Of a DNA stretch of 64,000 nucleotides, positions 6,483 to 23,511 are shown in pieces. Location of the stretch: contig CAYPDT010000001.1 of the NCBI GenBank assembly GCA_964409615.1, positions 307,880-371,879 of the forward strand. The letters run 5' to 3'. The position numbers and the translations under genes were made by a program. Position 1 is the stretch's first letter. Each line of letters starts with the position of its first letter. Origin of the DNA: an uncultured Candidatus Saccharibacteria bacterium (lineage in GTDB: Bacteria; Patescibacteriota; Saccharimonadia; Saccharimonadales; AWTP1-31). The notes under the pieces are model-generated. The model had not been told where the DNA came from, did no database searches, and saw only the letters and a program-made list of their open reading frames with translations.

Positions 6483-7385
6483 TTAGGCGCCGACGCGATC
6501 TTTACGCTGCTTGGCACGTGCGTTTTGCTCGATGTATTCAATGATTTTTTCAGCGACGTTACGCCCTGTAACTTTTTCGATACCAAAACCTGGGCTTGGG
6601 TTGACCTCTAGAACGAGAGGACCTCTTTCGGAGCGCATCATATCGACACCGCAAATAGATAAGCCCATGGCTTTAGCAGCCTTGATAGCAGTCTTACGTT
6701 CTTCGTCGGTCAGTTTCACGGTTGAGCCTTCTCCACCCTGATGTAGATTAGAACGGAAATCATCGTCGAGACTTTGACGTTTCATGCTGGCTACTACCCT
6801 GCCTCCAACCACAAATGCTCGTATATCTTCACCCGCAGACTCGGCAACAAACTCTTGTACCAAAAAGTTAACACCCTCTACATAAAAGGCCTGCATTACC
6901 GCTTGCGCAGCTTTTCTGGTTTCGGCCAGTACCACGCCATTACCGTGAGTGCCACGGGCAACTTTGATAATCAATGGCGCACCACCGGCTTGTTCGATAA
7001 CGTCTTCTAGGTCGCTTGTCTCGCGGGCAAACACAGTTTTTGGGATGCCAACATCAGCTCGGGCCAGAATTTGCATAGAGCGCAGCTTGTCGCGCGAACG
7101 ATTGATGGCAATCGAGCTGGCCGTAGTATAAACACCTTGCATTTCAAACTGGCGCACCATTGCTGTACCGTATTTGGTAATACTCTGACCAATGCGCGGA
7201 ATGATGGCGTCGATATCTGCTAGTGAGCCACCTTCGTAGCGCACCACTGGGCGACCTTTTTCAACCGTCACATAACATTCAGCATGATTAATTACACGGA
7301 TAGCATGACCACGCTTAGAAGCCTCTTCGATGAGTCGCTTTGTGGAATAGTTACCGGGGCCTTTAGATAGAATCGCGATATTCAT
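6483..7385 (-). CDS. rimK: RimK family alpha-L-glutamate ligase (ATP-grasp)
   Basis: The N-terminus MNIAILSKGPGNYSTKRLIEEASKRGH, an ATP-grasp core and a basic C-terminal tail match RimK, with an RBS AAGGTGG upstream. Confidence 0.85.
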   Translation of the reverse strand: MNIAILSKGPGNYSTKRLIEEASKRGHAIRVINHAECYVTVEKGRPVVRYEGGSLADIDAIIPRIGQSITKYGTAMVRQFEMQGVYTTASSIAINRSRDKLRSMQILARADVGIPKTVFARETSDLEDVIEQAGGAPLIIKVARGTHGNGVVLAETRKAAQAVMQAFYVEGVNFLVQEFVAESAGEDIRAFVVGGRVVASMKRQSLDDDFRSNLHQGGEGSTVKLTDEERKTAIKAAKAMGLSICGVDMMRSERGPLVLEVNPSPGFGIEKVTGRNVAEKIIEYIEQNARAKQRKDRVGA

Positions 7386-7394
7386 ACAGCCACC

Positions 7395-7811
7395 TTACGT
7401 TTTAAATCTCGAAGCGTCAACCACCATTTTATGGGTACGAAGGAATCGACGACCGATTAAGACTTGGTATTTCATGGCTTCACGGTTAGTAAGCGAAAGC
7501 AGCACGGGGTAGACTTCTCCATGTAATTCTACCTCGGTACTAATAATGTAGCGTTTTTCTCGGGTACCATTTGAGCTTTTTACAGTTTTTACATAAAAGT
7601 CAGTTGTTATCTGCTCGTGGTCGATATTTCCAAAAGGTACAAAGTAGACTGCTTTTCCCTCGGGAGTGTCGCGCTCTTCGATAGCTGTACAGTGTATGGC
7701 GCCGGTGTATGCACCGGTATCAATCTTAGCGACAATCTCTTTGACCCCAAAGCCAGGAAAACTGACAGTCTCGAAGGTGCTAATAACTTTTTTATCTTCC
7801 TGCGTTGACAT
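7395..7811 (-). CDS. RimB-like retropepsin-type protease ('putative ATP-dependent zinc protease' family)
   Basis: The KIDTGAYTGAIH motif and its position immediately upstream of rimK support the call. The start is placed at the MSTQEDKK ATG (7811), which is preceded by AGGAGG. Confidence 0.6.
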   Translation of the reverse strand: MSTQEDKKVISTFETVSFPGFGVKEIVAKIDTGAYTGAIHCTAIEERDTPEGKAVYFVPFGNIDHEQITTDFYVKTVKSSNGTREKRYIISTEVELHGEVYPVLLSLTNREAMKYQVLIGRRFLRTHKMVVDASRFKT

Positions 7812-9255
7812 ATTTGCCTCCTGTGGCTGCGTGCGCAATTGCTAAATGTGGTGGGTTTGTCGGATCGAATTTTCCGGCAAGTAAGAACTCAAACATCGTA
7901 TCATTACCGACGTGTTGATTCCAGAAATCAATAGCCCGAACTCGACCTACTTGATAGGCTAGGTCCTTGTTGTACGTAGCCACCGCCTCATCAACGGCCA
8001 TGCGTGCAATTGGCGTTCCACGATGCACTCGCAATGTAGAATCATAGGCCAAGCGTTGAGCTTTTTGCATTTCTTTTGGCGTAACTTCTGTGCCGTCTTC
8101 GGCCATCATCAAAGTACGAAGTTTCCAATTCTTGTCGTAGATACCACGATAGGTTAATCCTTTATAAGCCATGGCCGTGTTAAGTAAGTACGTAAAGTTA
8201 GCCATAGTCCAGCCTTCATTTTTGCCATTGGCTAATTCTTGGTACATGTTCGCAATGCCCTCTTCGAAGGGGAGCGACGTTGCCTGGACCTGTGGTCCGG
8301 CCGGTATGATGAGGCCGTTTCCAAAAATTGGGATTGAACTAGCCCGCCCATTGATAAAGCGTTCTTTATGCACGCCGCCTTCATGTACAGTTATTCCAAA
8401 GGCGTCTCCGTCTGATTCAAGCACAGCACGATCGCGGCCAATCTCTACACCTTCACGTTTTTGACTCCATGATAAAAAACTACCTGATTTCAAGAAAACA
8501 CCAACTTCATCAAGTTGGTCGCGTGTCTGTAAACCACGCATAAATACCTGCATTAACCGATATGGGTCGAAGGCAGTCTCACCCTCGTCTTCCATAATGG
8601 CTCGTGTTCGCGCCACCGCTTCATGTTCGGGCCAGAAAAAGGCCTCGATTCGCTCTTTTAGAAATGCTTCGGTATCGTCTGTGAGTCGGGGTAAGCCCTC
8701 GGATTCATTTCCAGAGGTAAGGCTCGTTAAGGTTTCTTGGACTTCATCAAAAATATCCTGGGTGTAGCCTTTGTAACCTTTTTGGCCGATTTTCCCACGA
8801 ATCTCAACAACGGTTGCGTCGATAAGTGCTTGGTCAGGTCGGCCATATAGCTCCTCGTTGCGTTCCTGAAAATTATAAATAGCATTCGTAAAGTCTGGCG
8901 TTTCTGGCCGGTTCAAATCACGGGCCATAAGCAAGAATTCGGCCTCCCGCCGACGATAGTCGATAGTACCTTGGTATGCTTCACGCTCTATATCACTAAA
9001 CCCATCAACATCACTAGCTACCTTACCCAATAGTGATAGTAGTTCTACTGTTTCTTCTAGCGGTGCCCATTCTAAAAGGGGATAGGCAATGTCGGGCTGA
9101 GTCGACCGAGATGCCATAAAATCGGCTTTTGCCTGATTGCGCAAACCTTGAGCATCATCAAAATACTCATAGGTTTGTAAGCCGACTTCAGGAATTCCAA
9201 GAATAAGCTGATTAAACTGGGGTGCATAGAGACTCATACTAGAAATATTATACAA
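7792..9255 (-). CDS. DUF1704 / MATCAP-like metallo-carboxypeptidase family protein (tentative)
   Basis: HEGGVH (an HExxxH spacing) is followed by NG. EEGIA lies where the family's QEGLA-type motif is expected. The gene is in an operon with the rimB-like gene and rimK. Confidence 0.45.
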   Translation of the reverse strand: MYNISSMSLYAPQFNQLILGIPEVGLQTYEYFDDAQGLRNQAKADFMASRSTQPDIAYPLLEWAPLEETVELLSLLGKVASDVDGFSDIEREAYQGTIDYRRREAEFLLMARDLNRPETPDFTNAIYNFQERNEELYGRPDQALIDATVVEIRGKIGQKGYKGYTQDIFDEVQETLTSLTSGNESEGLPRLTDDTEAFLKERIEAFFWPEHEAVARTRAIMEDEGETAFDPYRLMQVFMRGLQTRDQLDEVGVFLKSGSFLSWSQKREGVEIGRDRAVLESDGDAFGITVHEGGVHKERFINGRASSIPIFGNGLIIPAGPQVQATSLPFEEGIANMYQELANGKNEGWTMANFTYLLNTAMAYKGLTYRGIYDKNWKLRTLMMAEDGTEVTPKEMQKAQRLAYDSTLRVHRGTPIARMAVDEAVATYNKDLAYQVGRVRAIDFWNQHVGNDTMFEFLLAGKFDPTNPPHLAIAHAATGGKYVNAGR

Positions 9256-9398: not shown

Positions 9399-10064
9399 TT
9401 AAGTATCTATATTCTCCGAGACCACGATTACTCGGGCGTCATACGTTTTTGTAGTCTTGTTATATTTGCCCGCACAAGTTATAAGATTAAGTTGCTTAGC
9501 AATAGTACTGTCTTTTATAAAAAGAGCTTTATCCGCTTCTTTTGCAGATACAGTAGATACCGATTTTACCTTGAAACTTCGGACAGATTTATCGCCAAAA
9601 GTAACCCTAAAGGTGTCATCCTTTTTTAGGTTTCCAAGGTTATAAAAAACTCCTTTAGCGTATACACCATTTACATGACCGTCGATAATACTGAGGCCTG
9701 GGCCTCCTGGAAGCGATCCTTTAGCATACCACCCTGCCATATGTACATTGCCCGGTGCAACCATTCGATTTTGTTTATCTACGCCAACTTGCTGTATGAA
9801 CCCTTTAGCCTTAATCGATGGTAATTCTATAGATAATGGCTTATCTGCCGGAACGCTAAAGCTACCAGGAACCTTCTGTTCGCTAGGCGTATCAGACGTC
9901 TCAGATGCTACTACTTGAGCGGGTGGCACTCCTCCATTCCGAATCCCGTAAAAATCTCGAAGCATTAACAGACCATAGCCTACCAACAGGAGACCGATAA
10001 CAAAAGATAACCTCCGAATTGAGCGACGTGTGAGAAGTGGTAATCTTTTTTTACTACGAGGCAT
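9399..10064 (-). CDS. Sortase (class F-like)
   Basis: N-terminal TM anchor, catalytic His in IIDGHVNG, Cys in LNLITCAG, and Arg in YDARVIVVSE. Confidence 0.8.
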   Translation of the reverse strand: MPRSKKRLPLLTRRSIRRLSFVIGLLLVGYGLLMLRDFYGIRNGGVPPAQVVASETSDTPSEQKVPGSFSVPADKPLSIELPSIKAKGFIQQVGVDKQNRMVAPGNVHMAGWYAKGSLPGGPGLSIIDGHVNGVYAKGVFYNLGNLKKDDTFRVTFGDKSVRSFKVKSVSTVSAKEADKALFIKDSTIAKQLNLITCAGKYNKTTKTYDARVIVVSENIDT

Positions 10065-10068: not shown

Positions 10069-11826
10069 TTAATACTCCCGGTGCATGCTACTTCGAACAG
10101 CGTATGCTAAGGAAACAATTCCTAGTAGGCTGAAGATAACTTGTGCTAGCAAAGCGGATGGCTTAACACCAGTGTTAGGGGCAGCTGCATCGCCTGAAGA
10201 ACCAGCATTGGCGTTGGCGGTGGTTGCCACACATACTACACCTTCAAATTGGTAGGCTCCGACAGAGGGGCATGAATTTCGGGCTACGCCACGTGCGTCT
10301 GTACTAACACCGAGAACTGATGCACCAGCTTTGATCGCTGGACTACCATCTAGAAGCGCAATGGTATCTACGGAACCACCATTGTCCTGAAGAGGACCAA
10401 GTGTCGACATAACATTAGGAACTACTTTATAGCCAGTACAATTTGGATCATCAGTTATGTTATTACCGAGGTCGGAAGGCGTGAGATCTAAAAGCCCAGA
10501 TAGTCCAAGTACCGACTTATCTCCTTTAACGCAACTGCCGATAACACCGTTCCTGGAGTTTCCGGCTATTAAACTATTTTGTGCGCTTGACCCATTGACC
10601 ATATCTGGTGCAAAAGGGTCAACTCTATTTACAAAGAAGGTGGGATTATTGCCCACGATAAAGTTCTGGAAGAACGTGCTAGGCTGAGACTGAGTTGTTT
10701 CATTACCGACAATCGTTGCATTAGTAAATGTCAAGACAGCACTGTCGATCGGCAGACTTGAAGTAAAACCAGCACCAGTAAGTCTGTCATCGACATTATT
10801 TGTGATAGTGTTGAATGCTGCTGTTACGTTAGTAAAGTTCCGTGCACTTGCAATCCTGCCATTAAAGATGAAGCCCGAAACATAGGGCTGACTTTGGAGA
10901 GGATCACCCATTGGCTCTGCATTGATAACGTTGACTTCGTTCCCAGAAATAGTTACTGCGTCCAGTGTTAGATCGGTGCCAACTTCTGCAATCGTACCGC
11001 TATATTCACTAATAACGACTCCAGACCACTTTTCACCAGAATTGTCAGAAACTGTTGTTCGTGCCATGTGAAACTCTATGCTATCTACATTATCTGTGTC
11101 GGTCTCATAGGCCAGAAATGCTAAGATACCGGCAGATTCAGAACTGTTGCCTGTGATGATACTATCGGTGATGTCTATGGATGGAATGTCGCTAGGATCT
11201 ACGGGCTGAAGTGCTATCCCGAGACCTGCCATGTAGCTATTAAAATCGCTGTTAGGCATCATTCCTGGGAATGTAGAATTGGCGTTGTCGGTAATAGTAG
11301 AGTTCGAGACAATAACATGTGTCGCTTGAATGTATACTCCCATTGTTGAATTATGAACTTCAACATTATCGATAGTTACATTCGCAGAAGACAACGCAGC
11401 AATACCCGCAATAGATGCGCCAGTAATAGTAAAGTCTTTGAAAACATGGTCAAGTGTAGCTTGTGGGCCAGGATCTGGGTCGGCTAAGAATCCTGTATGG
11501 CCATCGGCATCTATTATCGTCATCCCCTTACCGGCACCGATTATGCTGACAGATTTGTTTATTATTGCTGGTAAATCTGCAGATAGTGTAATCGTACCTG
11601 CCGGAATAGCTATAGTGTCATTAGAATTGTAGCCGCCAACTGCAGAACATGTGTTTTCGTTAGCAGAGTTATTGACAGATGTGATGGCATCTTCCAGAGA
11701 ACAACTAGCCGACACAGTCAGAGTAGCAGCGTGAGCCCTACCAGAACCTAATGCCAGCACCACCACAAACGCGAAGACGGCCAGGATTAGTTTGTTTGTT
11801 TTGCTGATGTTCAAGATGTTTTGCAT
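10069..11826 (-). CDS. Secreted parallel beta-helix surface protein with choice-of-anchor-Q-like C-terminal domain and APNTG sorting signal
   Basis: Signal peptide ...GSGRAHAATL, beta-helix-like repeats rich in N, T, I and G, and LQDNGGSVDTIALLDGSPAIKAG...TDARGVAR...VGAYQFEG. The C-terminus is APNTG plus a hydrophobic helix plus a basic tail. Confidence 0.75.
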   Translation of the reverse strand: MQNILNISKTNKLILAVFAFVVVLALGSGRAHAATLTVSASCSLEDAITSVNNSANENTCSAVGGYNSNDTIAIPAGTITLSADLPAIINKSVSIIGAGKGMTIIDADGHTGFLADPDPGPQATLDHVFKDFTITGASIAGIAALSSANVTIDNVEVHNSTMGVYIQATHVIVSNSTITDNANSTFPGMMPNSDFNSYMAGLGIALQPVDPSDIPSIDITDSIITGNSSESAGILAFLAYETDTDNVDSIEFHMARTTVSDNSGEKWSGVVISEYSGTIAEVGTDLTLDAVTISGNEVNVINAEPMGDPLQSQPYVSGFIFNGRIASARNFTNVTAAFNTITNNVDDRLTGAGFTSSLPIDSAVLTFTNATIVGNETTQSQPSTFFQNFIVGNNPTFFVNRVDPFAPDMVNGSSAQNSLIAGNSRNGVIGSCVKGDKSVLGLSGLLDLTPSDLGNNITDDPNCTGYKVVPNVMSTLGPLQDNGGSVDTIALLDGSPAIKAGASVLGVSTDARGVARNSCPSVGAYQFEGVVCVATTANANAGSSGDAAAPNTGVKPSALLAQVIFSLLGIVSLAYAVRSSMHREY

Positions 11827-11897: not shown

Positions 11898-14800
11898 TTA
11901 ACCTATAGGTGTGACTACGGTTGGGGCAAACCCTGTTGGGCTTGAATGACTTTGTGGAATCGTCACAGAAACGGTAGTGCCTTTTCCAGGAGTACTTTGG
12001 ACAGTTATGCCTCCGCCCAGTTTCTGCAGAATCATGCGGGTGATGTACAAGTTCAGTCCTAGCCCCGGGTGATCAAAAGTTGTCGAATCTGTACCGCGAG
12101 TTAAAGGTTCGAAAAGATGTGCCATTACCTCTGGTGACATACCGGCGCCATTGTCACGTACTGTTATGAGCGTTTTGCCACCAACAGATTTACTGCTAAT
12201 AGTTACTGCACTATTGGGATTGCTAAATCGAATAGCATTTTCGACTGTTGATCGAATAATCTGTGCCAGTTCTTCTGGCTGCATTTGCACAACAGAGTTA
12301 GAGCTAAGTAAATTGCTTACGGCCACCCCATTTTCGGCAGTCAGCTTAGACATTAACGGTGCAATATTTTGCTCGTAATCGTGTTTGACTGAAATATTTG
12401 GTGCGGGACCGCCCACTACACTAAAACGGTTTACCTTTCCAAGTGCCTCTGATAATTGGACTAATTGGCCGATTCCGTTAGTAAGCAGCTTGGTATCGGG
12501 GAACTGCTCTAGACCTGCTGTACCAGACTGTAGTGCGCTGGCGTGGGAAGCTAAACTGGTAGCAGCATCGGCTACAAAGGTCTTCTTTTGATCCAGTAAT
12601 TGCTGCTCGGTTGCTAGTTGTTGTTTTCTTTGGGCGTGAAGTTGTCGCTGTTTTTTCCAGGCCATAAACGTTACGAATATAGCAATCGCACCAAAGAATC
12701 CCCATATTAATTGATTCACGTATCGTCCCCAGCTATGATCGTAGGATTTATTAAAATACAATACCAGATCTGTTACTGCCACGACCCCAGCGATGCCAAC
12801 TAACGGCACCCACAACTGTTTGTTTGATATGGCCAGGACTTCGCCAGAAACTACCGAACGATCTCCAGATACTAATGCTTGCTCTGCCTGAAGCGTGAGG
12901 TTATTTGATGTTGCTTGCAGAGCGACTAGCTTAGCCTTGAATTGGGCAATAAATTCCGGCTGCAATGCATGCTTCGATGCAATCAACTCTAAAGCGCCGT
13001 TCATAATACTAAGCGGCGTATTAAGATAATGAGTAATTATAGCCAAGAAATCCGAGACTGATTGTCTGGTAGTAATAACTTTTGTCAGTAAGTCGTTCAT
13101 GACTTTCTGATAACGATATTCGCGCCATGCCCGGTAGGTATAGTACAGCGCCAACAGTAGCAACCAAGACAAAAAGAAGTACGGCAGCGGATTGACTTTT
13201 GGATCTCTAGCTATGCGAGGTAGGCCGAGAGGTAGTTCTTCTTCTGGAATCTTTGATATTTCTAGCAATTTTGGCTGATCTGGTTGTGGAGACTCTTCTG
13301 AAACGGGGCTGGGTGTGGTCGTAGTTGTTCTTGGACGAGATGGACGTGTTGGTCTGGTCGGGGTTGCTGGCGTGTTTGAAGTGGGGGCAGTAGGAGAAAC
13401 TGGTTGAGCTGGTGTGCTTGGCGTTTGCACATCGAATACCCCTAGCACCCAAGTGCTTTGACCAACCGCGTTTATAGCAGACACCTGGAAGTCATACCGA
13501 GTCCCGGGACTAAGACCAGAAACGATATATGACGTGCTGGTGCTTTGAGGATGGACGTATTCTTGCCATTGACCGGTAGAGTGTAGCCGGTATTGGATGC
13601 GGTAATCAATAATTGGCGTACCTCCATCATTGGCTGGCGGTTGCCAAGATAGTGCAATGCTGGATGTAGTTGGAGTTCCACCTAAATTACGTGGTGGGCC
13701 TGGCAGACTTTCGCCCAAAACGAATGTTGGGTAGGTCGCCACTTGGCTATACCATACCGGTGTCGTAAAGTCCCAGGTATTTAGGGGAGGGTTGGTTGTA
13801 TTATTCCTAAAATAATTTGGTGCCTGATTGTTGCTATTAACCGGTTTACAGACCGCGGCGTCATCATACTGGCTTGCTGTTACAACCGTATCGGCGCCAG
13901 GATTAATCTGATCCTCAACCTCTAGCCAGTTTGCGCATGGAGCACCCACCGTAAGCGATGCATCGAAATAGTTATTTATTAGGTAATTTGGGGCAGCGCT
14001 TGGAGCAACTGTACCTTCACCTTCGTTAAATATATGGAAGAACTGGCCAACAAAAACACCTTCCTTAACCCCACTTACATTTGTTATTATCGCGGCACTG
14101 AAAGAGTTACTTATACTACTTTGGAAGTCTGGGTTATTAGGATCGTCAATTATTCCAACTACCCCCACAAGACCTCCAGTATTCGACGAATAGAAGGCTT
14201 GCGCAACGGCTGGAATTTGGGTAGCAAACTGAGGCTCTTCGTTGCTAAGACTCCCTGATGCATATGACGAAGCAATATCTGTATGGTCTGCAACTCCAAC
14301 AAGGCCCCCGACAGACGAGCCAATCTCGATATAGCCACCTAAATCATCGTACGGAACGGTGGTAACAGCACCAGCAACCGAGCCCGTAGCATAGGTGTTA
14401 GTTAGGGCTATCCGAGTCTGCCCGTAGTCAACGCTGGAGGTACCTCCAATCAGCCCACCCGCCGCGTATCCACCCTGTACCGAACCCGTCGCGAACGAAT
14501 TTTGAACGGCCACCTGCCCCTGAGCAAAGCCTATCAAGCCGCCAGCACCAACACTGCCAGCACCATTTATTGCGTAGCCGGTACCGGATGCCGTACCAGT
14601 AGCAGAAGTGCGGTTAATCACGGCTGTTCCTGCCGTTCGTATGTCCCCAATCAAACCCCCAGCCCTAAAACCCGAAGATGCACTATCTATGAAATTATCC
14701 GAAGGTCCAACGCTACCCGTTGCATACACATCTTCAATTGTATGGTTATAACCTTGTAATGAGCCGATTGCCCCGCCAGAAAGCGCGCCACCATCCCGTC

Positions 14801-17800
14801 CTTCGATAATGACCATGCCAGTGGCATAGCTGTCGCGCAGGACACTGGCCGAAGCTGTCTGGGAAACCGCAATATTTGCACCAATCAAACCCCCAGCCAT
14901 TGCTATGACGCTATCGCATTCATCTATTTGACATGCCTGATTAATACTTGCTGTCACCAATCCTGTAGCGTAGACTCCTTCGATCTTAGACCAACCCACA
15001 ATCATTCCCACCGAACCACCAACAATCGGCCCTCCAACCGTATCAACCAGAGGACTTACGGCAGAAAAATCTATGACCCCAGTACTGTAAGAGTCTTGAA
15101 TTCGCAACGCACTAGTCAAGTTATTTCCGCCCGTTACGCCACCAACCAATCCTCCCGCCGCACCAGAAACTCCGCGCGCCGCTTGGTTGCCGTCTTCAAC
15201 AGTAATATCGCCCGTTGCAAAAGAGTCAGCAATATCAAGCAAAGTGGCCGAACCTACAAGCCCCCCGGCATAAGATACTGTGCCATTCGAAACGGTTACG
15301 TCCATCGATGAGCTAGAGTCTTGCACCTTAACACCCCTCACCAAGGAGGCTTCTGGATCGGCGGGGCTTACAGTTCCTTGATTGGTGCTAAAGCCAACAA
15401 GCCCACCGCCAGCCCCTTCGCCTAATTGAATCTGCCCCGTAGAGTTACCGTTCGTAATGGTCAGGGATGAGTCGTTGGAACCACCCACTAAACCCCCGGC
15501 AAATGCAGGATCGGAATTCCCACCAGAAGTTGGACAAGCAATTGTGCCGTCATATGCCGAATCTTCTATTGCAACCGTGCCGACCGCCGTTACTCCAATT
15601 AACCCTCCAGCCCCGTCGCTGCATGTCACAGTACTGTTCATATCGGAGTTAGCATTACGAAGCGAGATTGCAGCATCTGACATAGCACCCCCGATAATTC
15701 CCCCTGAAAGACTACTGTCTAAAATCGTGCCGTGCGATTGAACGTCCTGCATGGTAAGCTCGGATTGCTCAACATTTACGTATACCATACCCAATATGCC
15801 CCCACTGGTGCCAGGAGACTGCACCACCCCTGTATAGGCAATATCCTGCCATAATACCGACCCATCAAAGCCAGTACTATCAAAATCAGATAATGTGCCT
15901 ACAATACCTCCAGTAAAATCTTCCCCGATAACATCCCCGGCAACTGTAATGTTGTCTAAAATTGTGTCTGGAGAGGCAGAGGCAATCAGTGTCGCTGCAG
16001 GAACATCGTTGGACAACATGCTTGTAATAGAAGAATCTGTTAAAGTAAGGTTCCGAATTTCGGCACTTTGGGCAAAGGAAAACATGCCAACCGCTTGGTA
16101 GCTGGCATTTGCCGGAATATTCATTTGCAGGTCGCTAATAGTAAACCCTTGGCCGTCAAGAGTCCCCTGGAACGGCGTATTGGAATCTCCCACAGGTACC
16201 CACCCCTCGCCCCCATTCCAGGTCAGTGTATCGCTACAGTCAATATTGCCAACAAGATGGAAAACGCTGCCCCTATACTGATTTAGTGCATCTTGCATTT
16301 GCTGACAGTCACTTAAGCCAATAAATACTTGGAAATTCTGAACACCGCTCCATGCCCCTTGGCCGTAAGAGTTTACGGCAGCTATTCGAAAGTCGATACT
16401 TTGTATTACCCGTGCTTCCGCCTGAATAGCAAGTACAATCGCCTGTGCCAAATCGGTATCGGTTGTATTGGTGCTATCGAAACTCAAGTCTGTTCCGGTA
16501 CCATCTACAATAGTAGTCCACGTACCGTTATTGGCCGCCCACCCATAGTTTTGGAGCTCAGTTTGGGAAGCAGCCCAATCACTGCCAGGACGGGGTTTGA
16601 ACTGAATAACGTAATCGGTAATTGGGGCGCCAAGATATGGTACTTGCCAATCGAGCTTAGGGAAAGAAAACGGTGCAAACTGGTTGGTTTGTTCCACTCC
16701 ACTTACCACCATATTTCGCGGCTCAGATGGTAACTGACTAGTGCTAACGTTTTCTAGAACTTCCCAATCCCCTTGACCGATTGCATTAACTGCGGCAACT
16801 CTAACATCGTACATTTGACCAGCAACCAGCCCTGCTATTAGCTGAGACCGATCAGTCGATGGTGATCGACTAACACTATTCCAGGAACTATTGCTATGGA
16901 GCTTATACTGCACTGCGTAATCGGTGAGTGGGGTGTTGCCATTCAGTGTTGGTGCTAGCCACTGGGCAGTTAAACTCGTGGGATTTGCACTGCTAGTCGT
17001 TATAGCTCTCACCTTGCCAGGTAACGTAGGTGCCGCCGGCACCTGTGAGATAAAGACAGGGGTAGACGAAGTGACCACCTTCCAAACGTTTGTGAAATCC
17101 CACACTTGGTTTCCCCCGACCCTAAACGGTGCATTGGTAGAGTTATTATAAAAATAGTTTGGCTGCGAATTATTAACGTTAACCGCCGAGCAAAAACCAT
17201 TGGGCGTCTGCTCGGGTAAAAATGCACTGAAATCCCCATCGGTATTTGCTCCAATACAGGCACTTATTCCGATACGAGAGACGTCAATAAAATTTCCGCT
17301 GCCAGAAATATTTACACCAAATGGAGGATCGGCATTTTCTTCGTATATCACTACGCCAATGAATCCACCAAATGCCTCACGCTCCATTGGACCAGTCGAT
17401 ATCGTCTGTGATCCAATGGCAAATGAATTGTTGATTTCAGTCGCCCCTGCCATTGCTGCAAAACCACCTGCCAAAACGACAGAAGGGTCTAGCTCAGGAC
17501 TACGGGTAATTGAAATATCCATAGAACTATAGCTATTGTCTACTGTACCTCCTAATGCTTGGCCGAATAATCCGCCGGCAAACATGGTGATTGCCCCTTG
17601 GGTATAAGCACCGGATATCGTACCAGTAGAGTACGAATCAGAGATGCTCGAAGAGTAACTTACCAGCATCAAACCGCTAGCGATAGCCGCCTTACCACTG
17701 TCTCCATTACTATAACTATTGTTGGTAATATCCATATCGACTGATATCCTAGTTGCCGAACTAAACATAAACAGGCCAACAAATCCGCTGGCATGAATAT

Positions 17801-18728
17801 TTCCACCTGTACCCTCGCAGAAAACCGTCCCTGAAACTGAAACATCACTGAATGAGGAATTACTAGTCTGTGAAGCAATGGGCGCCAAAACAACATCAGC
17901 ATTGTCTGTTGCAAGATCTACATTGGTAAGTTTTACATTTGTAACCGAAGCACCGATAGCAAACCCGAGTAACCCTGACTCGGTATCGTCAGTAAGTATC
18001 CGCTGGTACAAACCATCTATTGCATAACCATTACCTTCCAATGTGCCGGTGAATTCTTGGCCGCCGCTGCCATTTCCAACCGCCACAAATCCAGCACCAC
18101 TATTCCAGGTACTTGTTGCCGTGCAATCTATTGGTCCGGTTAATTCGTAATGGCCCGCTCTATCGTCTTGCATTTCTTGTAGTTGTTCGCATGTCGATAC
18201 TTGGTATGGCTGTTCGGGACTTCCTAACCCACTTCCCGAAAAAGCCTGTGCTGCAGGAAAACCCACCATGGCGATAACTGCAATAAATACCGCTACACAC
18301 GCCTCAGCAACAGCCAGCCAGTAAAATGCAGGTCTCCAGCGGTAATGAAAACGTGGGAACACAACCACGCGCAAATGGTGCAATAAGCGATACTTAGTTT
18401 TTGGTGCAATTCTTATAAGTGGCTTCTTGTGGTGTTGGTAGTCCATCCACATATACAGAAGAGAACCTAAAGATAAAAGCACAAGACTAGACAGCGGCGA
18501 CCACAAGAACGAGAAATTTGTTATCTGGCTTTCGCTGGACTCAATTAACCGACTAACAAATTTACTATATTCTGGTTTGACACGTAAGTAGATCAAGGCA
18601 GCAATTGAGGCCAGCATAACAAAAATAGGCAACATCTTAACACGTTGCCGATACATCCTATCTCCAAAAGCGCCAGCCCTATCCGCTAGGCGTTTACGCT
18701 GAACAATTTTTACAGTCGTCTTCGTCAT
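11898..18728 (-). CDS. Giant (2276 aa) membrane sensor: GLUG-repeat/FN3 adhesin-like ectodomain fused to a histidine-kinase core
   Basis: One uninterrupted ORF. It begins with three N-terminal TM helices. Dozens of GGL[VI]G (GLUG-type) repeats follow, with three FN3-like domains (for example LPGPPRNLGG...YRIQYR...YDFQVSAINAVG). Next come a Pro/Thr linker and a TM helix, then an H-box-like segment (ITHYLNTPLSIM) and two more TM helices. The HATPase_c motifs follow: N box ENAIRFS, G1 VRDNGAGM, F FEPLTRG, G2 GLGLNL. Confidence 0.8.
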   Translation of the reverse strand: MTKTTVKIVQRKRLADRAGAFGDRMYRQRVKMLPIFVMLASIAALIYLRVKPEYSKFVSRLIESSESQITNFSFLWSPLSSLVLLSLGSLLYMWMDYQHHKKPLIRIAPKTKYRLLHHLRVVVFPRFHYRWRPAFYWLAVAEACVAVFIAVIAMVGFPAAQAFSGSGLGSPEQPYQVSTCEQLQEMQDDRAGHYELTGPIDCTATSTWNSGAGFVAVGNGSGGQEFTGTLEGNGYAIDGLYQRILTDDTESGLLGFAIGASVTNVKLTNVDLATDNADVVLAPIASQTSNSSFSDVSVSGTVFCEGTGGNIHASGFVGLFMFSSATRISVDMDITNNSYSNGDSGKAAIASGLMLVSYSSSISDSYSTGTISGAYTQGAITMFAGGLFGQALGGTVDNSYSSMDISITRSPELDPSVVLAGGFAAMAGATEINNSFAIGSQTISTGPMEREAFGGFIGVVIYEENADPPFGVNISGSGNFIDVSRIGISACIGANTDGDFSAFLPEQTPNGFCSAVNVNNSQPNYFYNNSTNAPFRVGGNQVWDFTNVWKVVTSSTPVFISQVPAAPTLPGKVRAITTSSANPTSLTAQWLAPTLNGNTPLTDYAVQYKLHSNSSWNSVSRSPSTDRSQLIAGLVAGQMYDVRVAAVNAIGQGDWEVLENVSTSQLPSEPRNMVVSGVEQTNQFAPFSFPKLDWQVPYLGAPITDYVIQFKPRPGSDWAASQTELQNYGWAANNGTWTTIVDGTGTDLSFDSTNTTDTDLAQAIVLAIQAEARVIQSIDFRIAAVNSYGQGAWSGVQNFQVFIGLSDCQQMQDALNQYRGSVFHLVGNIDCSDTLTWNGGEGWVPVGDSNTPFQGTLDGQGFTISDLQMNIPANASYQAVGMFSFAQSAEIRNLTLTDSSITSMLSNDVPAATLIASASPDTILDNITVAGDVIGEDFTGGIVGTLSDFDSTGFDGSVLWQDIAYTGVVQSPGTSGGILGMVYVNVEQSELTMQDVQSHGTILDSSLSGGIIGGAMSDAAISLRNANSDMNSTVTCSDGAGGLIGVTAVGTVAIEDSAYDGTIACPTSGGNSDPAFAGGLVGGSNDSSLTITNGNSTGQIQLGEGAGGGLVGFSTNQGTVSPADPEASLVRGVKVQDSSSSMDVTVSNGTVSYAGGLVGSATLLDIADSFATGDITVEDGNQAARGVSGAAGGLVGGVTGGNNLTSALRIQDSYSTGVIDFSAVSPLVDTVGGPIVGGSVGMIVGWSKIEGVYATGLVTASINQACQIDECDSVIAMAGGLIGANIAVSQTASASVLRDSYATGMVIIEGRDGGALSGGAIGSLQGYNHTIEDVYATGSVGPSDNFIDSASSGFRAGGLIGDIRTAGTAVINRTSATGTASGTGYAINGAGSVGAGGLIGFAQGQVAVQNSFATGSVQGGYAAGGLIGGTSSVDYGQTRIALTNTYATGSVAGAVTTVPYDDLGGYIEIGSSVGGLVGVADHTDIASSYASGSLSNEEPQFATQIPAVAQAFYSSNTGGLVGVVGIIDDPNNPDFQSSISNSFSAAIITNVSGVKEGVFVGQFFHIFNEGEGTVAPSAAPNYLINNYFDASLTVGAPCANWLEVEDQINPGADTVVTASQYDDAAVCKPVNSNNQAPNYFRNNTTNPPLNTWDFTTPVWYSQVATYPTFVLGESLPGPPRNLGGTPTTSSIALSWQPPANDGGTPIIDYRIQYRLHSTGQWQEYVHPQSTSTSYIVSGLSPGTRYDFQVSAINAVGQSTWVLGVFDVQTPSTPAQPVSPTAPTSNTPATPTRPTRPSRPRTTTTTPSPVSEESPQPDQPKLLEISKIPEEELPLGLPRIARDPKVNPLPYFFLSWLLLLALYYTYRAWREYRYQKVMNDLLTKVITTRQSVSDFLAIITHYLNTPLSIMNGALELIASKHALQPEFIAQFKAKLVALQATSNNLTLQAEQALVSGDRSVVSGEVLAISNKQLWVPLVGIAGVVAVTDLVLYFNKSYDHSWGRYVNQLIWGFFGAIAIFVTFMAWKKQRQLHAQRKQQLATEQQLLDQKKTFVADAATSLASHASALQSGTAGLEQFPDTKLLTNGIGQLVQLSEALGKVNRFSVVGGPAPNISVKHDYEQNIAPLMSKLTAENGVAVSNLLSSNSVVQMQPEELAQIIRSTVENAIRFSNPNSAVTISSKSVGGKTLITVRDNGAGMSPEVMAHLFEPLTRGTDSTTFDHPGLGLNLYITRMILQKLGGGITVQSTPGKGTTVSVTIPQSHSSPTGFAPTVVTPIG

Positions 18729-18830: not shown

Positions 18831-19232
18831 ATGAAAGTTTCATCAAAATTCCGCCACTTAGCGCCATACATCTGCCTTGCATTAGTTGTAGTTGGGATGA
18901 CTACTTATGTCGGATATCACAAGAGATACACCAACAGGCAGGACGAATCGAGCAAGCAAGCTAAAGTACAAACCTTAGATAGCGCCTTCGAGAACTCAAC
19001 AAGCTTCTTCAAACGTAATATTACTGGTACAGTCAGTGAAGTCAACGCAAAACAGATTACTATTGTATCGTCTAATTCTACCGAACAAACCTTTAACTTT
19101 ACGCCAAAAACTATATTCCAACGTGCAGGCCAGAAAATATCCGTAACAGATTTAAAGAAAGATCAGCAAGTAACTGTCTTAAGAAGTCGAATTGACTATT
19201 CACAAGCGGCAGGAATTACAATCAATAAGTAG
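18831..19232 (+). CDS. Hypothetical membrane-anchored protein
   Basis: A 133-aa ORF with an N-terminal TM helix and no recognised motif. Confidence 0.5.
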   Translation: MKVSSKFRHLAPYICLALVVVGMTTYVGYHKRYTNRQDESSKQAKVQTLDSAFENSTSFFKRNITGTVSEVNAKQITIVSSNSTEQTFNFTPKTIFQRAGQKISVTDLKKDQQVTVLRSRIDYSQAAGITINK

Positions 19233-19504: not shown

Positions 19505-19790
19505 TTATTCTTTAGAGTATTTTTTGGCTGTAAAAACAAGCAGGCAAAATCCTGAAATCACCGCAAATACACCAATCAAGACAGACTCACGGCCCAAGCC
19601 AGTGTTCGGGGCGGCTGCATTAGTACCTGCATTATTAGTCGATGCCGAAGAGACCAATGCCCGAGTCGTAATAGCCCAGGGTAAGGGCAGGTTTGCACTT
19701 GCCAATGCTATTGCCGGTAACGGTGGCACGGAGATCTACGTTAACCAGTAGCTTCACAAGCCCCGGGCGAGGCCCCAAACTGCTCACTCG
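19505..19790 (-). pseudogene. Degraded 3' remnant of a choice-of-anchor-Q-like surface-protein gene (retains the APNTG sorting signal)
   Basis: The 74-aa ORF ends ...NAAAPNTGLGRESVLIGVFAVISGFCLLVFTAKKYSKE, which is the same sorting-signal architecture as the three full paralogs. The upstream sequence matches the conserved C-terminal domain only weakly and in shifted frames. Confidence 0.5.
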
Positions 19791-20327
19791 TAAAGTACTA
19801 ATGATTGCAGGAGAAACATCAATGGATATATTTGAACTTTTTTGACCTTGAAATTCTTTACGCTTTTATCACCAAAGGTAACGGTAAATTTTTCATCTGC
19901 TTTGAGTTTATCGATGTTATACAAAATCCCTTTGGCGTACAGGCCATGCACAAGGCCATCCAAGATACTGAGGCCATTTGCACCTACTAATACTCCACCG
20001 GTGTACCACCCAGCCATATGCACGTTGTTTGGCACCACCATTCGGTTTTCTTTATCTACCCCGACCTGCTGGATGAAACCTTCGGCTTTTATGGTTGGTA
20101 ACTGGATAGACAATGGCTTGTCTGCGGGAACGCTATAGTTTTTTTTGGGGGAGCTGCTTAGTCGGTTCATCTGTCGAAACCGTAGCCACGGCGTGCACTG
20201 GCGTTACGCCAGCATGCTGAATTTTGTACCATTTGCGTATGGCATTTACACCGACACTAATCAGCAATATGCCAACTACGGGTGCTACGAGCCGAGTTTT
20301 TTGCCGAATAAAAAGAGCCCGCCACAC
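19784..20327 (-). pseudogene. Sortase pseudogene (paralog of 9399-10064)
   Basis: Two ORFs in different frames. 20133-20327 encodes the TM anchor and 19784-20170 encodes the core, which aligns with the intact sortase (SVPADKPLSIQLPTIKAEGFIQQVGVDKENRMV...). The frames switch at a C5A8 homopolymer on the coding strand (20139-20151). IDGH is replaced by LDGL, and the TC/Arg-containing C-terminus is missing. Confidence 0.7.
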
Positions 20328-20378: not shown

Positions 20379-21884
20379 TCAACCTATTTTTACCGCAAAT
20401 CGCTTGCGAAATGCATAGGCAATCATACTAATGCCGAGTGTGCTAGCAGCAAATGCCATCAAGCTCGAAGCAGTTTTTGCACCAGTGTTAGGGGCTGCAG
20501 CACCACCAGCATTGGCGTTGGTTGTGGTTGCCGCACATACAGCACCCTCGAACTGATAAGCACCGACGGATGGGCAAGTGTTAGGACGAGCGACGCCGCG
20601 GGCATCGGTGGTAACGCCAAGAACTGCGCTACCCGAAGCGATGGCAGGAGAACCTGCGAGCAGAGCTCGAGTTGGAACACTTCCACCGTTGTTCTGGAGA
20701 ACCCCCAGCGTTGAAAGGATACTGCTTATATTTTGTCTGTCGGATGGTTGGGTAAATGATGTACACGAAGCGTCATCAGATATATTGTGTCCCAGGGAGT
20801 TGACTACCACAACAACATCAGTTCCAGAGCCGCCTATAACATCCGTTAAATCTGCAACCGTACAGTTAGAGGACACACCATCATTTAGATTATCTGCCAT
20901 CAAGCTATTAGTAACCTCAACGGTGGCACGTGCTTGGTCGCCAGGAGAGACAGCACTACCGGCGGCATAAAAAGCAGCCGACTTAACACCAAGACTACCC
21001 CCTGTGCCAGTTTTACCCCTGAGACCAGTGATTGTGACATTCTGAACTTTAGTATTAACTGTCGCGCTTCCATCACTACCAAGCGCATAACTTCCAAATG
21101 GTATCGCGTTATCATCAGCTGTAAAGTCATCAACAGTCACATTGGTGACAATTGTATTGATGGTCGTATCAACAGAATCACCGTATGCTAAAGAGATAAT
21201 TCCGAATATACTGTCGCCGACAGCTGTACTATGTATGTCCGACAGCGTAATGTTATTCAGATTAGCGTTGATTATACCGTTACCCCGCTGCTCTACGCGA
21301 ACCAGGGATAATCCACCAGTGTTATTGATGTTATGCACGTATACATTATTTATTTCTATCTCGTGCGTCGCACTGTCACTGGCTATGGTAGTAATATGTT
21401 CTCCTGTAGTGGAGTCCGATCCTTGCCCGTCAACTTCTATGTTGCTTATGCGGATGTTACCGTTCTCTGTGCGTATTGCAAAGCTGCGGAATGCTGTTAT
21501 TTTTAAGTTATCAATTGAGATGTCCACACCTTGAGATGTAAATACTGCGTACTGACCTGCACCCCCACTAATGACAGTACTAGACATACCTGCCCCTTGG
21601 ATACGAACTGGCTCTGTAATGAGCGGCAGATCAACAGATAACGTGAATGTTCCTGCAGGAATGGTGATCGTATCGTTGGTTCCATATGCTGCACCGGTTT
21701 TTACACAACCATTTCCATCCGCGCCGTTATTGGTAGCCTCAATTGCTTCGTTGAGTGTACAGTTGGTATCTACTGCTAGTGTCGCAGCGTGAGCCCTACC
21801 GCTGCCCAAAGCAAGCACTGTCAGAAAGACAAAAGCGGCTAGGACAAATTTATTTGTTTTGCTTAGGTTGAGAATGAGTTGCAT
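20379..21884 (-). CDS. Secreted beta-helix surface protein, choice-of-anchor-Q-like, APNTG sorting signal (paralog 2)
   Basis: Shares the signal peptide (LSKTNKFVLAAFVFLTVLALGSGRAHAATL), the C-terminal domain (LQNNGGSVPTRALLAGSPAIASG...TDARGVARPNTCPSVGAYQFEG) and the APNTG plus TM plus basic tail with 10069-11826. Confidence 0.75.
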   Translation of the reverse strand: MQLILNLSKTNKFVLAAFVFLTVLALGSGRAHAATLAVDTNCTLNEAIEATNNGADGNGCVKTGAAYGTNDTITIPAGTFTLSVDLPLITEPVRIQGAGMSSTVISGGAGQYAVFTSQGVDISIDNLKITAFRSFAIRTENGNIRISNIEVDGQGSDSTTGEHITTIASDSATHEIEINNVYVHNINNTGGLSLVRVEQRGNGIINANLNNITLSDIHSTAVGDSIFGIISLAYGDSVDTTINTIVTNVTVDDFTADDNAIPFGSYALGSDGSATVNTKVQNVTITGLRGKTGTGGSLGVKSAAFYAAGSAVSPGDQARATVEVTNSLMADNLNDGVSSNCTVADLTDVIGGSGTDVVVVVNSLGHNISDDASCTSFTQPSDRQNISSILSTLGVLQNNGGSVPTRALLAGSPAIASGSAVLGVTTDARGVARPNTCPSVGAYQFEGAVCAATTTNANAGGAAAPNTGAKTASSLMAFAASTLGISMIAYAFRKRFAVKIG

Positions 21885-21926: not shown

Positions 21927-23461
21927 CTATGCACGTTTTTTGAGAGCATACCCAAGGATGGATAGTTCAAGAACAGAGGCTATGCCAGCCATCGAGGTTG
22001 AGGCAGTTTTTGCTCCGGTGTTAGGGGCTGCAGCACCACCAGCATTAGCATTGGTGGTGGTTGCAGCGCAGACCGCTCCTTCGAACTGGAAGGCTCCAAC
22101 GGATGGGCAAGTGTTAGGACGAGCTACGCCACGAGCGTCTGTTGTTATGCCCAAGACCGATCCTCCAGAAGCTATGGCAGGCGAGCCTGGTAACAGTGCA
22201 CGGGTCGGCACTGCGCCACCATTGTTTTGAAGAGGACCGAGGGTGGAATATACGTTGGACACATTATGCTGATCGGTTGGAGAAGTAATCGAACCAGCAC
22301 AACTGTTATCGTCAAAAATGTTGTGACCCAGGGAATTGACCGAAACCACTCCTGTTCCAAGTCCACTAGCTAATGCTGTGAAATCTCCTATAGCACAGTT
22401 GTTTGATACTCCATTACTCTTGTTGTTTGCCAGAAGACTGTTACCTACCGAGATTGTACTTGTGGCAGTTGTGCCCGCTCCAACACCTAACGATGCTGCA
22501 TAAAAAGCTGCCGAAGCTGCTAATCCGGTTGGGTCTAGTGTACCGTCTGTCCCGGTGACAGTGACATTGTTAATGATTGTATTCACAATTGCATCACCAT
22601 TATTGGAATAAGCGTTATTGGAGAACGGCGCAGCAATTGTAGTAGTCGAATAGACATCATCGATTGTAATATTAGCAGCGTTAGCGTTGAGTGTACCAAA
22701 ACCACCAAAGACGTTATCCCACAAGCCGATTGAAAGCATTACCCCAATAGTACCGCCCCCAGATGTCGTATTTGAGATGTTTGCAATGGTAATATTTTGC
22801 AAGGATACATTTGACACTCCACCTTGCCCCTGGTTAATTAACAACGCTCCAACAACATTCGCCGAACCTACAATGTCATGTACATAAATGTCACTAAGAT
22901 TAACCGTTCTTGTACCCGAAGAAAGTGATTGCAAGAATATTGCAAGAATATTGCTTCAAATTCGCCACTTGATGGCAGGGCATCGCTACCATCTACTTCT
23001 ATATGATTGATATTTAGAGTCTCATCTGTGTTAGACAAGATTGCGTAGCCGCTATACGCGATAACCTTTAAGTTACTGATGGTCGCAGATATCCCAGTAC
23101 CGATTTCTATTCCATTATACTGTCCATTGTCACCATCAATAATTGTCTGACTCATGCCAGCACCGTTAATAACTATATCTTCGGTGATTACAGGTATGTC
23201 TGCAGTTAGTGTATAAGTGCCCGCCGGGATATTGATAGTGTCATCGGTGCCGTAACTGCCTACTGCCGTACACCCAGACTGGTCAGCTCCTGCGTTTACT
23301 GAATCAATTGCAATCGGAAGCGTGCAACCCCCTGTTACGTTTAAGGTTGCAGCATTTGCTCGTCCGCCACCGATTGCTAGCACCGCCAAGAATGCGAAGG
23401 CCGCAAGAATTAGTTTGTTTGTTTTACTGAGGCTAATGATCGATTCGTAAATGCTCTGCAT
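21927..23461 (-). pseudogene. Choice-of-anchor-Q-like surface protein paralog 3, frameshifted by an 11-bp tandem duplication
   Basis: The N-terminal half (ATG at 23461, MQSIYESIISLSKTNKLILAAFAFLAVLAIGGGRANAATL...) and the C-terminal half (21927-22934) lie in different frames. Removing one copy of TTGCAAGAATA joins them as ...EFEAIFLQSLSSGTRTVNLSDIYVHD..., giving about 507 aa. Confidence 0.75.
22929..22950. repeat. Perfect 11-bp tandem duplication TTGCAAGAATA x2 (followed by a partial TTGC)
   Basis: Read directly in the sequence. 11 nt is not a multiple of 3, and the duplication sits exactly at the frame break of the gene. Confidence 0.9.
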
Positions 23462-23511
23462 GGATGTTTCCTGTTTTTGTTTATGCTTGTGCTTATTGTA
23501 TAATCTTGGGT

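Follow-up and report, generated by a model that had tools for sequence, protein, structure and literature searches.

The 64-kb window analyzed here, that is, the whole 64,000-nucleotide stretch of DNA from an uncultured Candidatus Saccharibacteria bacterium, encodes on its minus strand a protein of 2276 amino acids (11898..18728, one open reading frame (ORF) with an ATG start) in which an adhesin-type ectodomain and a histidine-kinase core are joined in one genuine, conserved single gene. The kinase core belongs to a family that was undescribed before and, as far as we have seen, is restricted to Saccharibacteria. Functionally, we consider it reasonably likely that the protein is a conserved transmembrane sensor histidine kinase with a surface-contact ectodomain, whose output would run through a response regulator encoded at an unlinked site; for this reading we infer the topology, the surface display, the phosphorylated histidine, the ligand, the partner, and the output.

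That the fusion is real follows from its conservation in independently assembled orthologues. An initial annotation of the window had described an adhesin-like ectodomain and a histidine-kinase core in one uninterrupted ORF, and the ORF is as described except for its strand, which is minus: its frame is free of stop codons, of which the strand’s two other frames contain 130 and 140. The search for orthologues that the annotation had suggested retrieved the same fusion in independent Saccharibacteria assemblies, with identical or orthologous full-length proteins (50-100% identity) in at least eight of them. By full-length search, one protein is 100% identical to the window kinase (P0001, which JGI calls ‘signal transduction histidine kinase’), two more are colinear with it at 100% coverage (P0002, 77% identical; P0003, 54%), and a further five share its ends at 50-56% identity (P0004-P0008, 2527-2596 aa), all with HATPase_c, GLUG/M26_N, and fn3 domains and with an additional NHL propeller inside the second beta-helix unit. 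Other full-length identical or orthologous proteins come from further independent assemblies (P0388, P0394, P0396, and P0397), and the 90% cluster of the window kinase holds 2276-aa members from JGI, NCBI, ENA, and Logan assemblies, one of which (P0388) sits on a contig of 698,658 bp. Giant repetitive genes are generally prone to misassembly, and one could suppose that a surface-protein gene and a kinase gene were mis-joined here or a frameshift missed; we found no specific support for such an artifact, and the identical or >90% identical 2276-aa proteins in four sets of assemblies, the colinear orthologues, the stop-free frame, and the presence of ectodomain and kinase in one protein throughout the family leave it with next to no probability. 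An assembly chimera, a frameshift, and a missed stop are thus ruled out by many independent colinear orthologues. No description of a GLUG-histidine kinase fusion, or of this kinase family, was found in a literature search that covered subscription journals thinly, in line with the initial annotation, which knew of no such fusion.

The catalytic end of the protein is the clearest part of the kinase. Its HATPase_c, or catalytic and ATP-binding (CA), domain (residues 2151-2259, 11952..12278; this and all other parts of the gene lie on the minus strand) is recognized by Pfam PF02518 with E = 7.7e-23 and 81.5 bits against a cut-off of 26.4, inside the segment (~2080-2276) to which the initial annotation had assigned it, and the N, G1, F, and G2 boxes quoted there are invariant among orthologues. 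Across 149 members of the wider family, N2164, D2192, G2194, G2196, G2222, and G2224 are 96-100% conserved. Upstream lies a HisKA-type dimerization and histidine phosphotransfer (DHp) hairpin, hereafter hairpin 1 (residues ~1885-1960, 12849..13076), whose H-box ‘AIITHYLNTPL’ contains H1900 (codon 13029-13031). What had been called an H-box-like motif stands as far as the histidine is concerned, H1900 being invariant among orthologues and present in 147 of the 149 family members, whereas the Pfam HisKA match (residues 1892-1928, HisKA positions 3-41) stays below threshold, with a best E of 7.3e-5 and 19.5-23.2 bits against a cut-off of 26.9. The surroundings of the histidine are conserved as well (Y1901, T1904, and P1905 in 91-95% of the family; H1900 with its Y-L-x-T-P context at 87-98% in >140 diverged sequences), and together the conserved ATP boxes and H1900 indicate that both catalysis and the acceptor site are under purifying selection. 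All named NCBIfam kinase families score far under their cut-offs (for example PhoR, 83 bits against 334).

The most unusual trait of the kinase, which the earlier reading overlooked, is what lies between these two parts: a membrane hairpin of two transmembrane (TM) helices (TM5 and TM6, 12657..12815, by hydropathy and AlphaFold2 (AF2)), followed by a degenerate second DHp-like hairpin, hereafter hairpin 2 (residues ~2025-2105, 12414..12656, by hhalign and Foldseek). From H1900 to the N-box asparagine N2164 there are 264 residues, with the two TM helices and the histidine-less hairpin in between, and family-mean hydrophobic segments at 1975-1989 and 2006-2017 place TM5 and TM6 family-wide. In the AF2 model of residues 1839-2276 (from an 18-sequence alignment; pLDDT 78, pTM 0.70), TM4 and the H-box lie on a single long helix, after which come a return helix, a linker predicted as disordered, and TM5. 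The membrane hairpin accounts for the helices at 135-154 and from 161 on in model numbering; TM6 would be continuous with a second long helix, followed by a second return helix and the CA domain. In Foldseek searches, hairpin 2 together with the CA domain aligned over 230-250 columns (E about 1e-10) to known DHp+CA cores, namely those of HK853, WalK, ZraS, and CpxA, and the intramembrane-sensing kinase BceS (8g3a_D) was also among the structural matches. Aligned against each other by hhalign, ‘TM4 + hairpin 1’ and ‘TM6 + hairpin 2’ of this protein match with a probability of 94% (E = 1.1e-7, 105 columns) and H1900 pairs with T2058, a score that is good but not conclusive and may be inflated by helical and TM composition. 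Our reading is that the split core may have arisen by duplication of a TM-DHp unit, after which the first copy would have retained the acceptor histidine and lost its CA domain and the second would have retained the CA domain and lost the histidine. A histidine in hairpin 2, H2062, was considered as acceptor and rejected, as it occurs in just 41 of the 149 members, is conserved in the window kinase’s clade only, and does not occupy the canonical histidine position, which the profile alignment places at T2058. No Pfam or NCBIfam model covers the split-core layout and we found no description of it in the literature; to our knowledge, no kinase with such a split between DHp and CA is known.

A skeptic could take this layout as the mark of a degenerate kinase, the CA domain being a pseudokinase or a plain ATPase that does not signal, and could point to the ~170 residues, membrane hairpin included, that separate DHp from CA, to the missing histidine in the hairpin beside the CA domain, to the sub-threshold HisKA match, and to the lack of a partner regulator in the window and in 12 related loci. 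Such decay is hard to reconcile with ATP-binding boxes conserved at 96-100% and with an H1900 context conserved at 87-98% in sequences as diverged as these, and we regard it as very improbable.

Clustered at 50% identity, the family that the C-terminal module defines numbers at least 302 clusters. Its profile was built from the module without the CA domain (290 positions) and seeded with the window kinase, whose own match is therefore circular; an exhaustive search with it returned 548 representatives at E <= 1e-3, of which 302 remained at E <= 1e-10 and 68 at E <= 1e-30, and independent members aligned to positions 4-290 of the 290 with E down to 1e-141. The module consistently lies about 150 residues from the C-terminus and is complete, CA domain included, in 149 of the 155 best representatives, giving a family architecture of TM - DHp(H) - TM hairpin - DHp’ - CA. 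What precedes it varies widely: family lengths range from fragments up to 4413 aa, with ectodomains between ~150 and ~4000 aa long, and Pfam, run on a sample of 23 members, found HATPase_c in all 23, FN3 in 13-14, NHL or other propellers in 11-13, DUF285 in 6, Glug, Peptidase_M26_N, DUF11, and PKD in 3 each, and Reg_prop in 2. One Saccharimonadales protein of 1836 aa (P0017) shares the N-terminal three-TM part and the whole C-terminal module of the window kinase, and its ectodomain is wholly different, being made of BspA/DUF285 repeats, an NHL propeller, and DUF11. At the other extreme stand short members of about 600-650 aa, in which the same core is preceded by a plain signal peptide and only ~150 aa of ectodomain. 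Judged by these architectures, it is the membrane-kinase core that defines the family, the giant ectodomain being an elaboration of it, a swappable mosaic, and the protein that had been presented as a singular fusion is no one-off: it represents one clade of a large kinase family in which GLUG ectodomains are a minority type (3/23).

Taxonomically, a genome scan with narrow H-box patterns (one genome per species, GTDB representatives) found 11 loci, all in metagenome-assembled genomes (MAGs) of Candidatus Saccharibacteria/Saccharimonadales, which agrees with the earlier suggestion that the organism belongs to the candidate phyla radiation (CPR). The named database members are likewise all from Saccharibacteria and are annotated as ‘6-bladed beta-propeller’ or ‘signal transduction histidine kinase’. 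One MAG carried two family paralogues, and a second family member of 2013 aa (P0405) lies on the 698-kb contig of the window kinase’s orthologue.

At its N-terminus the window kinase has a module of three TM helices (residues 1-161, 18246..18728, delimited by hydropathy and charge counts; TM1 30-48, TM2 73-91, TM3 138-156), as the initial annotation had seen. The TM helix that it placed before the kinase is also there (TM4, residues 1849-1872, 13113..13184, family-mean hydrophobic segment 1849-1861), but the C-terminal part has three such helices and not one, TM5 (1972-1990) and TM6 (2006-2024) being the others by hydropathy. Basic residues are concentrated at the N-terminus (9 K+R) and in the TM2-TM3 loop (10 K+R vs 1 D+E), and all six cysteine pairs of the protein fall within its predicted outside part. 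Hydropathy and the positive-inside rule, taken together with the AF2 model, predict a topology with the N-terminus inside, residues 162-1848 outside, and the segments after TM4 and after TM6 inside. The basic loop of the N-terminal module, predicted to be cytoplasmic, contains a conserved ‘DYQHHKKPLI...YxxLHHL...P’ pattern, and residues of the module are invariant in alignment even with the distant P0017. A profile hidden Markov model (HMM) of the module matches 31 of the 155 family representatives and no Pfam family matches it; a word-indexed homologue search returned 2 fragments only, an uninformative outcome dominated by hydrophobic words. Immediately after TM3 stands a conserved A-x-A-[FY]-S-G motif (residues 159-164, 18237-18254) that resembles a signal-peptidase I site, and in short members of the family the corresponding position is taken by ordinary signal peptides that look cleavable. 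Were the motif cleaved, the three-TM module would become a separate membrane fragment, and force or clustering would be favored over a conformational relay as the mode of signaling.

The ectodomain, which the initial annotation had placed at nt ~13186-18250, corresponds to residues 162-1848 and, judging by its domains, is built like a Gram-positive surface adhesin, as two tandem units that each join a GLUG beta-helix, putatively of the IgA1-protease type, to FN3. The first beta-helix (unit 1, residues 162-569, 17022..18245, by Pfam, AF2, and Foldseek) is followed by FN3 domain 1 (residues 573-655, 16764..17012, Pfam fn3 E = 1.5e-12) and by a second, FN3-like domain with an insertion (residues ~670-800, 16329..16721); the second, longer GLUG beta-helix (unit 2, residues 801-1672, 13713..16328, 14 GGxxG repeats) is followed by FN3 domain 3 (residues 1678-1760, 13449..13697, E = 9.4e-18). 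The GLUG-type repeats reported earlier are borne out by 16 GG[LIFV]xG motifs spaced about 30-50 aa apart, where 2000 shuffles gave 0.40 +/- 0.64 (maximum 4), and by Pfam Glug (PF07581) scores on sub-sequences of 23.5 bits for unit 1 and 29.8 bits for unit 2 (cut-off 20.5; 15.6 bits, under the cut-off, on the whole protein). Of the three FN3-like domains in that account, the first and third are firm and the middle one is weak, with a sub-cut-off E of 0.0065, in a segment conserved among orthologues.

The two beta-helix units share a start module (‘PY.I...QL..M......Y.L..DIDC....W.PIG..F.G.LDG.G..I..L’) that is typical of GLUG/M26_N proteins, and both end in a cysteine pair and a ‘VN.NNQ.PNYF...WDF..W’ module before passing into FN3; cysteine pairs lie at 180/202 (start) and 491/513 (end) in unit 1 and at 808/831 (start) and 1598/1627 (end) in unit 2. 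Peptidase_M26_N is present in the precomputed annotation of orthologues, and on unit 1 itself it reaches E = 1.7e-4 and 21.4 bits, below the cut-off of 27.7. Structurally, AF2 predicts unit 1 to be all-beta, at a mean pLDDT of 61 that rises to 70-90 in the core and is poor in the C-terminal third. The top Foldseek matches of this model were IgA1 proteases (3n6z, 6xja_P, and 7uvk) with a probability of 1.00, though at marginal E-values (1e-3 to 2e-2), with a TM-score of about 0.4, and from a model of modest confidence. They were followed by right-handed beta-helix proteins in general, among them adhesins and tailspikes. Against PDB sequences a unit 1 profile gave one marginal match (7uvl_P, E = 9e-4), and a plain sequence search of PDB with unit 1 gave no match. 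A protease function of the ectodomain was considered and rejected, the kinase protein having no HExxH anywhere and no Peptidase_M26_C match.

Between FN3 domain 3 and TM4 runs the Pro/Thr-rich stalk noted earlier (residues 1765-1845, 13194..13436), of which proline, threonine, and serine make up 49%; proline-rich columns ahead of TM4 are nearly invariant in the 23 sampled family members. Similar segments span the wall in Gram-positive surface proteins, and here too the stalk probably spans the cell wall, ~80 residues being a sufficient length. Sortase anchoring of the kinase itself was rejected: the sequence has no LPXTG, PNTG, or AVTG before TM4, and 400 residues follow that helix.

Divergence along the protein is uneven. 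Relative to the 77% orthologue (P0002), identity is 86-95% in the membrane modules and 90-100% over residues 601-1200, and only 44-75% over residues 201-600 and 1201-1900, a mosaic that suggests recombination or diversifying selection in parts of the beta-helix units and the stalk. A diversity-generating retroelement or repeat-mediated variation was considered and rejected, there being no template/variable-repeat pair in the window, where the only repeats are paralogous APNTG genes and tRNA-Lys genes.

The initial annotation had put the kinase in a sortase/surface-protein island, and sortase and sortase-substrate genes indeed adjoin it. A secreted protein of 585 aa (10069..11826, minus), with a signal peptide and weak Beta_helix similarity, starts 71 nt past the kinase stop and ends in ‘AAAPNTG’ followed by hydrophobic and basic residues, which constitutes a sortase-type sorting signal; 4 nt further downstream begins a sortase (9399..10064, minus, Pfam Sortase E = 3.9e-17). 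Homologues of the 585-aa protein lie near the kinase in six related loci (L001, L002, and L004-L007) and a sortase does so in three (L001, L004, and L005); most related loci have APNTG proteins or a sortase nearby. The gap between the kinase and the 585-aa protein gene has no terminator-like site, and counts from a promoter/terminator scan were not above those of shuffles; an operon, and a -35/-10 site upstream of the kinase ATG, are weakly hinted at. Divergently from the kinase runs a gene (18831..19232, plus) for a DUF5666-like membrane-anchored protein of 133 aa (Pfam DUF5666 weak, E = 4.8e-4), which keeps the same place beside the kinase in L001-L009, even at ~30% kinase identity, and is a candidate accessory or co-sensor.

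As had been observed before, no response regulator is encoded nearby: receiver domains were found neither in the 64-kb window nor in the 12 related loci (L001-L012, about 190 kb) whether tblastn was used, with CheY, PhoB, Spo0F, OmpR, and hybrid kinases as queries, or six-frame ORFs were searched with an HMM built from 44 receiver sequences. Chemotaxis-type response regulators, CheY-like and stand-alone, have been reported in Saccharibacteria (10.1101/211649). The window also contains a second histidine kinase (41818-43494, minus), a conventional PAS-HisKA-HATPase_c protein of 558 aa that has no adjacent response regulator, which brings the tally of the window to two orphan kinases with no receiver domain found.

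From these parts we posit a mechanism for the contact-sensing kinase, as follows. The ectodomain would be displayed at the cell surface, crossing the wall on its stalk, and would bind to another cell, at a polymer or surface of it; being occupied, clustered, or put under mechanical load would then alter the packing of a six-helix membrane bundle, with TM3/TM4 shifting against TM5/TM6, and this repacking would change the reach of the CA domain, attached to hairpin 2, to H1900 on hairpin 1. The phosphoryl group would pass to a response regulator encoded elsewhere, with the co-located surface-protein and sortase genes, or a pilus-based behavior, as the likely output. Contact or adhesion sensing would be a plausible function. 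A bolder version, which we hold only tentatively, is that the protein is a contact or force receptor of epibiotic CPR bacteria, a wall-spanning, host-specific adhesin wired to a new class of kinase whose acceptor DHp and ATPase-bearing DHp would be distinct hairpins of a single six-helix bundle, and in which attachment to a host surface, or a pull on it, would rearrange that bundle and so gate the phosphorylation of H1900; if true, the swappable mosaic ectodomains would encode the host or surface recognized by each lineage.

Several points weigh against the sensor-kinase reading. The DHp hairpin is not adjacent to the CA domain, the Pfam HisKA score is under its cut-off, and the AF2 kinase model is a monomer of moderate confidence; we know of no described kinase that phosphorylates across such a separation of DHp and CA. 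With no response regulator in the window or in the ~190 kb of related loci, the pathway as observed is incomplete. Classical sensor kinases transmit signals by piston or rotation movements, of which the Pro/Thr stalk, being probably flexible, would be a poor transmitter, and a cut at the A-x-A-[FY]-S-G motif could leave the ectodomain tethered by the stalk alone. Finally, the ligand and the surface exposure of the ectodomain are predictions only.

Another reading keeps the kinase real but takes sensing away from the ectodomain. In it, the six-helix membrane bundle, the short TM5-TM6 loop, or the small DUF5666-like partner would read the signal (stress on the envelope or membrane, or else a small ligand), and the job of the ectodomain would be structural or adhesive. 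Such an arrangement would fit the conservation of the TM hairpin and the three-TM module while ectodomains exchange freely, the doubtful conformational coupling through a flexible stalk, the membrane-anchored neighbor conserved in L001-L009, and the intramembrane-sensing BceS among the structural matches. Yet a 5 kb ectodomain fused in every orthologue, in genomes of ~0.7 Mb, suggests that the parts work together, and in the AF2 model the ectodomain is joined directly to the H1900-bearing helix; we thus rate this account as rather unlikely.

One could also turn the direction of signaling around and regard the protein as primarily a membrane-anchored adhesin or surface-layer component that the kinase regulates or energizes from inside, for instance by using ATP to control the conformation, turnover, or sorting of the adhesin, with no reporting of outside events to a regulator. 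The ectodomain shares homology with those of giant surface proteins, as its matches to GLUG-motif, hemagglutinin-like, and BspA-family proteins show, and diverges in the mosaic manner typical of surface adhesins, it has a wall-spanning Pro/Thr stalk, its gene is probably co-transcribed with those of a sortase substrate and a sortase, and no response regulator lies nearby, all of which would suit such ‘inside-out’ control. However, an H-box histidine in 147 of 149 members together with a complete CA domain is the signature of phosphotransfer and not of an anchor, members of ~600 aa keep the core with an ectodomain of only ~150 aa, which argues that the core is no accessory of giant adhesins, and we know of no precedent for inside-out control by a histidine kinase. 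We judge this alternative unlikely, and the sensor kinase with a surface-contact ectodomain remains the reading against which we compare known systems below.

Among these, class-I histidine kinases (EnvZ/PhoR/WalK/CpxA; HK853) are the closest for the core. The window kinase resembles them in its H-box (HYLNTPL against the consensus HELRTPL, with HisKA under its cut-off), in a HATPase_c domain that has all of the N, G1, F, and G2 boxes, in a sensor placed between TM helices, in the passage from TM helix to DHp helix 1, and in the DHp+CA fold match (HK853, WalK, ZraS, and CpxA). Characterized class-I kinases have ectodomains of roughly 100-300 aa. The window kinase differs in its ~1690-aa ectodomain (up to ~4000 aa in the family), its extra, conserved three-TM N-terminal module, its non-contiguous DHp and CA with the TM hairpin and the histidine-less DHp between them, and in that no adjacent regulator was found. 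It is thus largely a class-I sensor kinase, but for the contiguous DHp-CA and the adjacent regulator of that class. For the ectodomain, the nearest likeness is to the GLUG/M26 IgA1-protease surface proteins (of S. pneumoniae and G. haemolysans), with which it shares the GGLxG repeats of a predicted beta-helix, the start module, the Glug and sub-threshold Peptidase_M26_N signals, and a combination with FN3 that occurs in many surface proteins; it departs from them in having no M26 catalytic domain, HExxH, or LPXTG/PNTG, and in a C-terminus that is an integral-membrane kinase.

Large sensors are also found in the hybrid two-component systems (HTCS, Reg_prop/Y_Y_Y) of Bacteroides, which have periplasmic, glycan-binding beta-propeller sensors of about 700-800 aa, their own receiver and DNA-binding domains, and a contiguous DHp-CA. 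The likeness lies in a large, multi-domain extracytoplasmic part in place of a small PAS or Cache module, and propellers also occur in the present family; the differences are the lack of a receiver domain, the split core, the wall-spanning stalk, and the monoderm-like CPR cell. A genetic link between a histidine kinase, a sortase, and its substrate is known from the proteobacterial dedicated sortase system, whose kinase (TIGR03785) acts in a system that includes a cognate response regulator. That system belongs to another phylum, no such cognate regulator was found here, and TIGR03785 aligns to the window kinase with 49.3 bits (cut-off 612.2) over the generic CA region only (2141-2258). In eukaryotes, adhesion G protein-coupled receptors and receptor kinases combine a long, stalked, adhesive ectodomain with a membrane signaling module and turn contact or force into a signal; with different signaling chemistry and no homology, they would be a functional analogy only. 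Giant proteins of Omnitrophota have been described as membrane-spanning, with extracellular adhesive domains and with HATPase_c among their predicted intracellular domains (10.1101/2023.11.21.568195). They belong to another phylum, have very different sizes and architectures, and are not described as a defined H-box kinase family. With large HTCS sensors and with HATPase_c in Omnitrophota giants, size alone is thus not unprecedented.

Biologically, CPR bacteria, Saccharibacteria among them, combine genomes of <1 Mb with a life attached to host cells, and how they recognize and respond to the host surface is largely unexplained. Kinases with adhesin-like, rapidly diversifying sensors of 1,500-4,000 aa are a candidate for this recognition step; each family gene takes up about 1% of the genome, and several paralogues are often present. 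A transposon-sequencing study of Saccharibacteria stressed adhesins, type IV pili, and the type IV secretion system and left such kinases unmentioned (PMC10633639). As these bacteria are now genetically tractable (PMC10633639), the contact-sensing idea is testable. The split core also poses a mechanistic question, namely how the ATPase gains access to the histidine and whether the membrane bundle gates it, that is of interest for signal transduction independently of the family’s biology. If the protein turned out to be a plain envelope-stress kinase carrying an adhesin, the finding would shrink to a curious domain architecture. The interest therefore lies less in a single GLUG fusion than in a family that combines adhesin-scale, swappable sensors with a split-core kinase in epibiotic CPR bacteria.

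Beyond the immediate neighbors of the kinase, the surface-protein island continues on the minus strand. It includes a paralogue of the APNTG protein (20379-21884, secreted, with weak beta-helix similarity and the same ‘AAAPNTG’ + hydrophobic + basic tail) and a further APNTG paralogue (21927-23674), likewise similar to beta-helix proteins only weakly and bearing that tail at the end of its 21927-22934 ORF, whose two overlapping ORFs (21927-22934 and 22868-23674) suggest a frameshift or pseudogene. In addition, a protein encoded at 23512-25833 ends in its translation in ‘LAVTG’, a TM segment, and KKK. ‘PNTG’ may be the sortase motif of this lineage. A 128-aa ORF with weak sortase similarity (19784-20170, minus) is 85% identical to part of the L004 sortase and is probably a truncated second sortase gene.

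The rest of the window contains chromosomal core genes (RuvC, YebC, ComEC, and a Mur ligase) and several systems of separate interest. A gene cluster at 6483-9255 (minus) combines a RimK ATP-grasp ligase with a putative ATP-dependent Zn protease (PF05618) and with a protein of 487 aa that matches the tyrosine carboxypeptidase MATCAP weakly; it may be a module for the addition and removal of C-terminal peptide tails. Two neighboring plus-strand genes encode a cohesin-dockerin pair in this CPR genome, the dockerin protein (43637-45415) with DUF3472 and Big_7 and the cohesin protein (45412-46386) with CarboxypepD_reg. At 58940-59668 (plus) lies a 242-aa GGDEF diguanylate cyclase with an intact GGDEF motif, whose short N-terminus was considered as a receiver and rejected as such; its presence suggests that cyclic di-GMP signaling exists in this small genome. 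Finally, a 114-nt inverted repeat (3717-3830 / 39009-39122, 80% complementary) consists of two tRNA-Lys genes, with anticodons TTT and CTT, and ~37 nt of shared flank.

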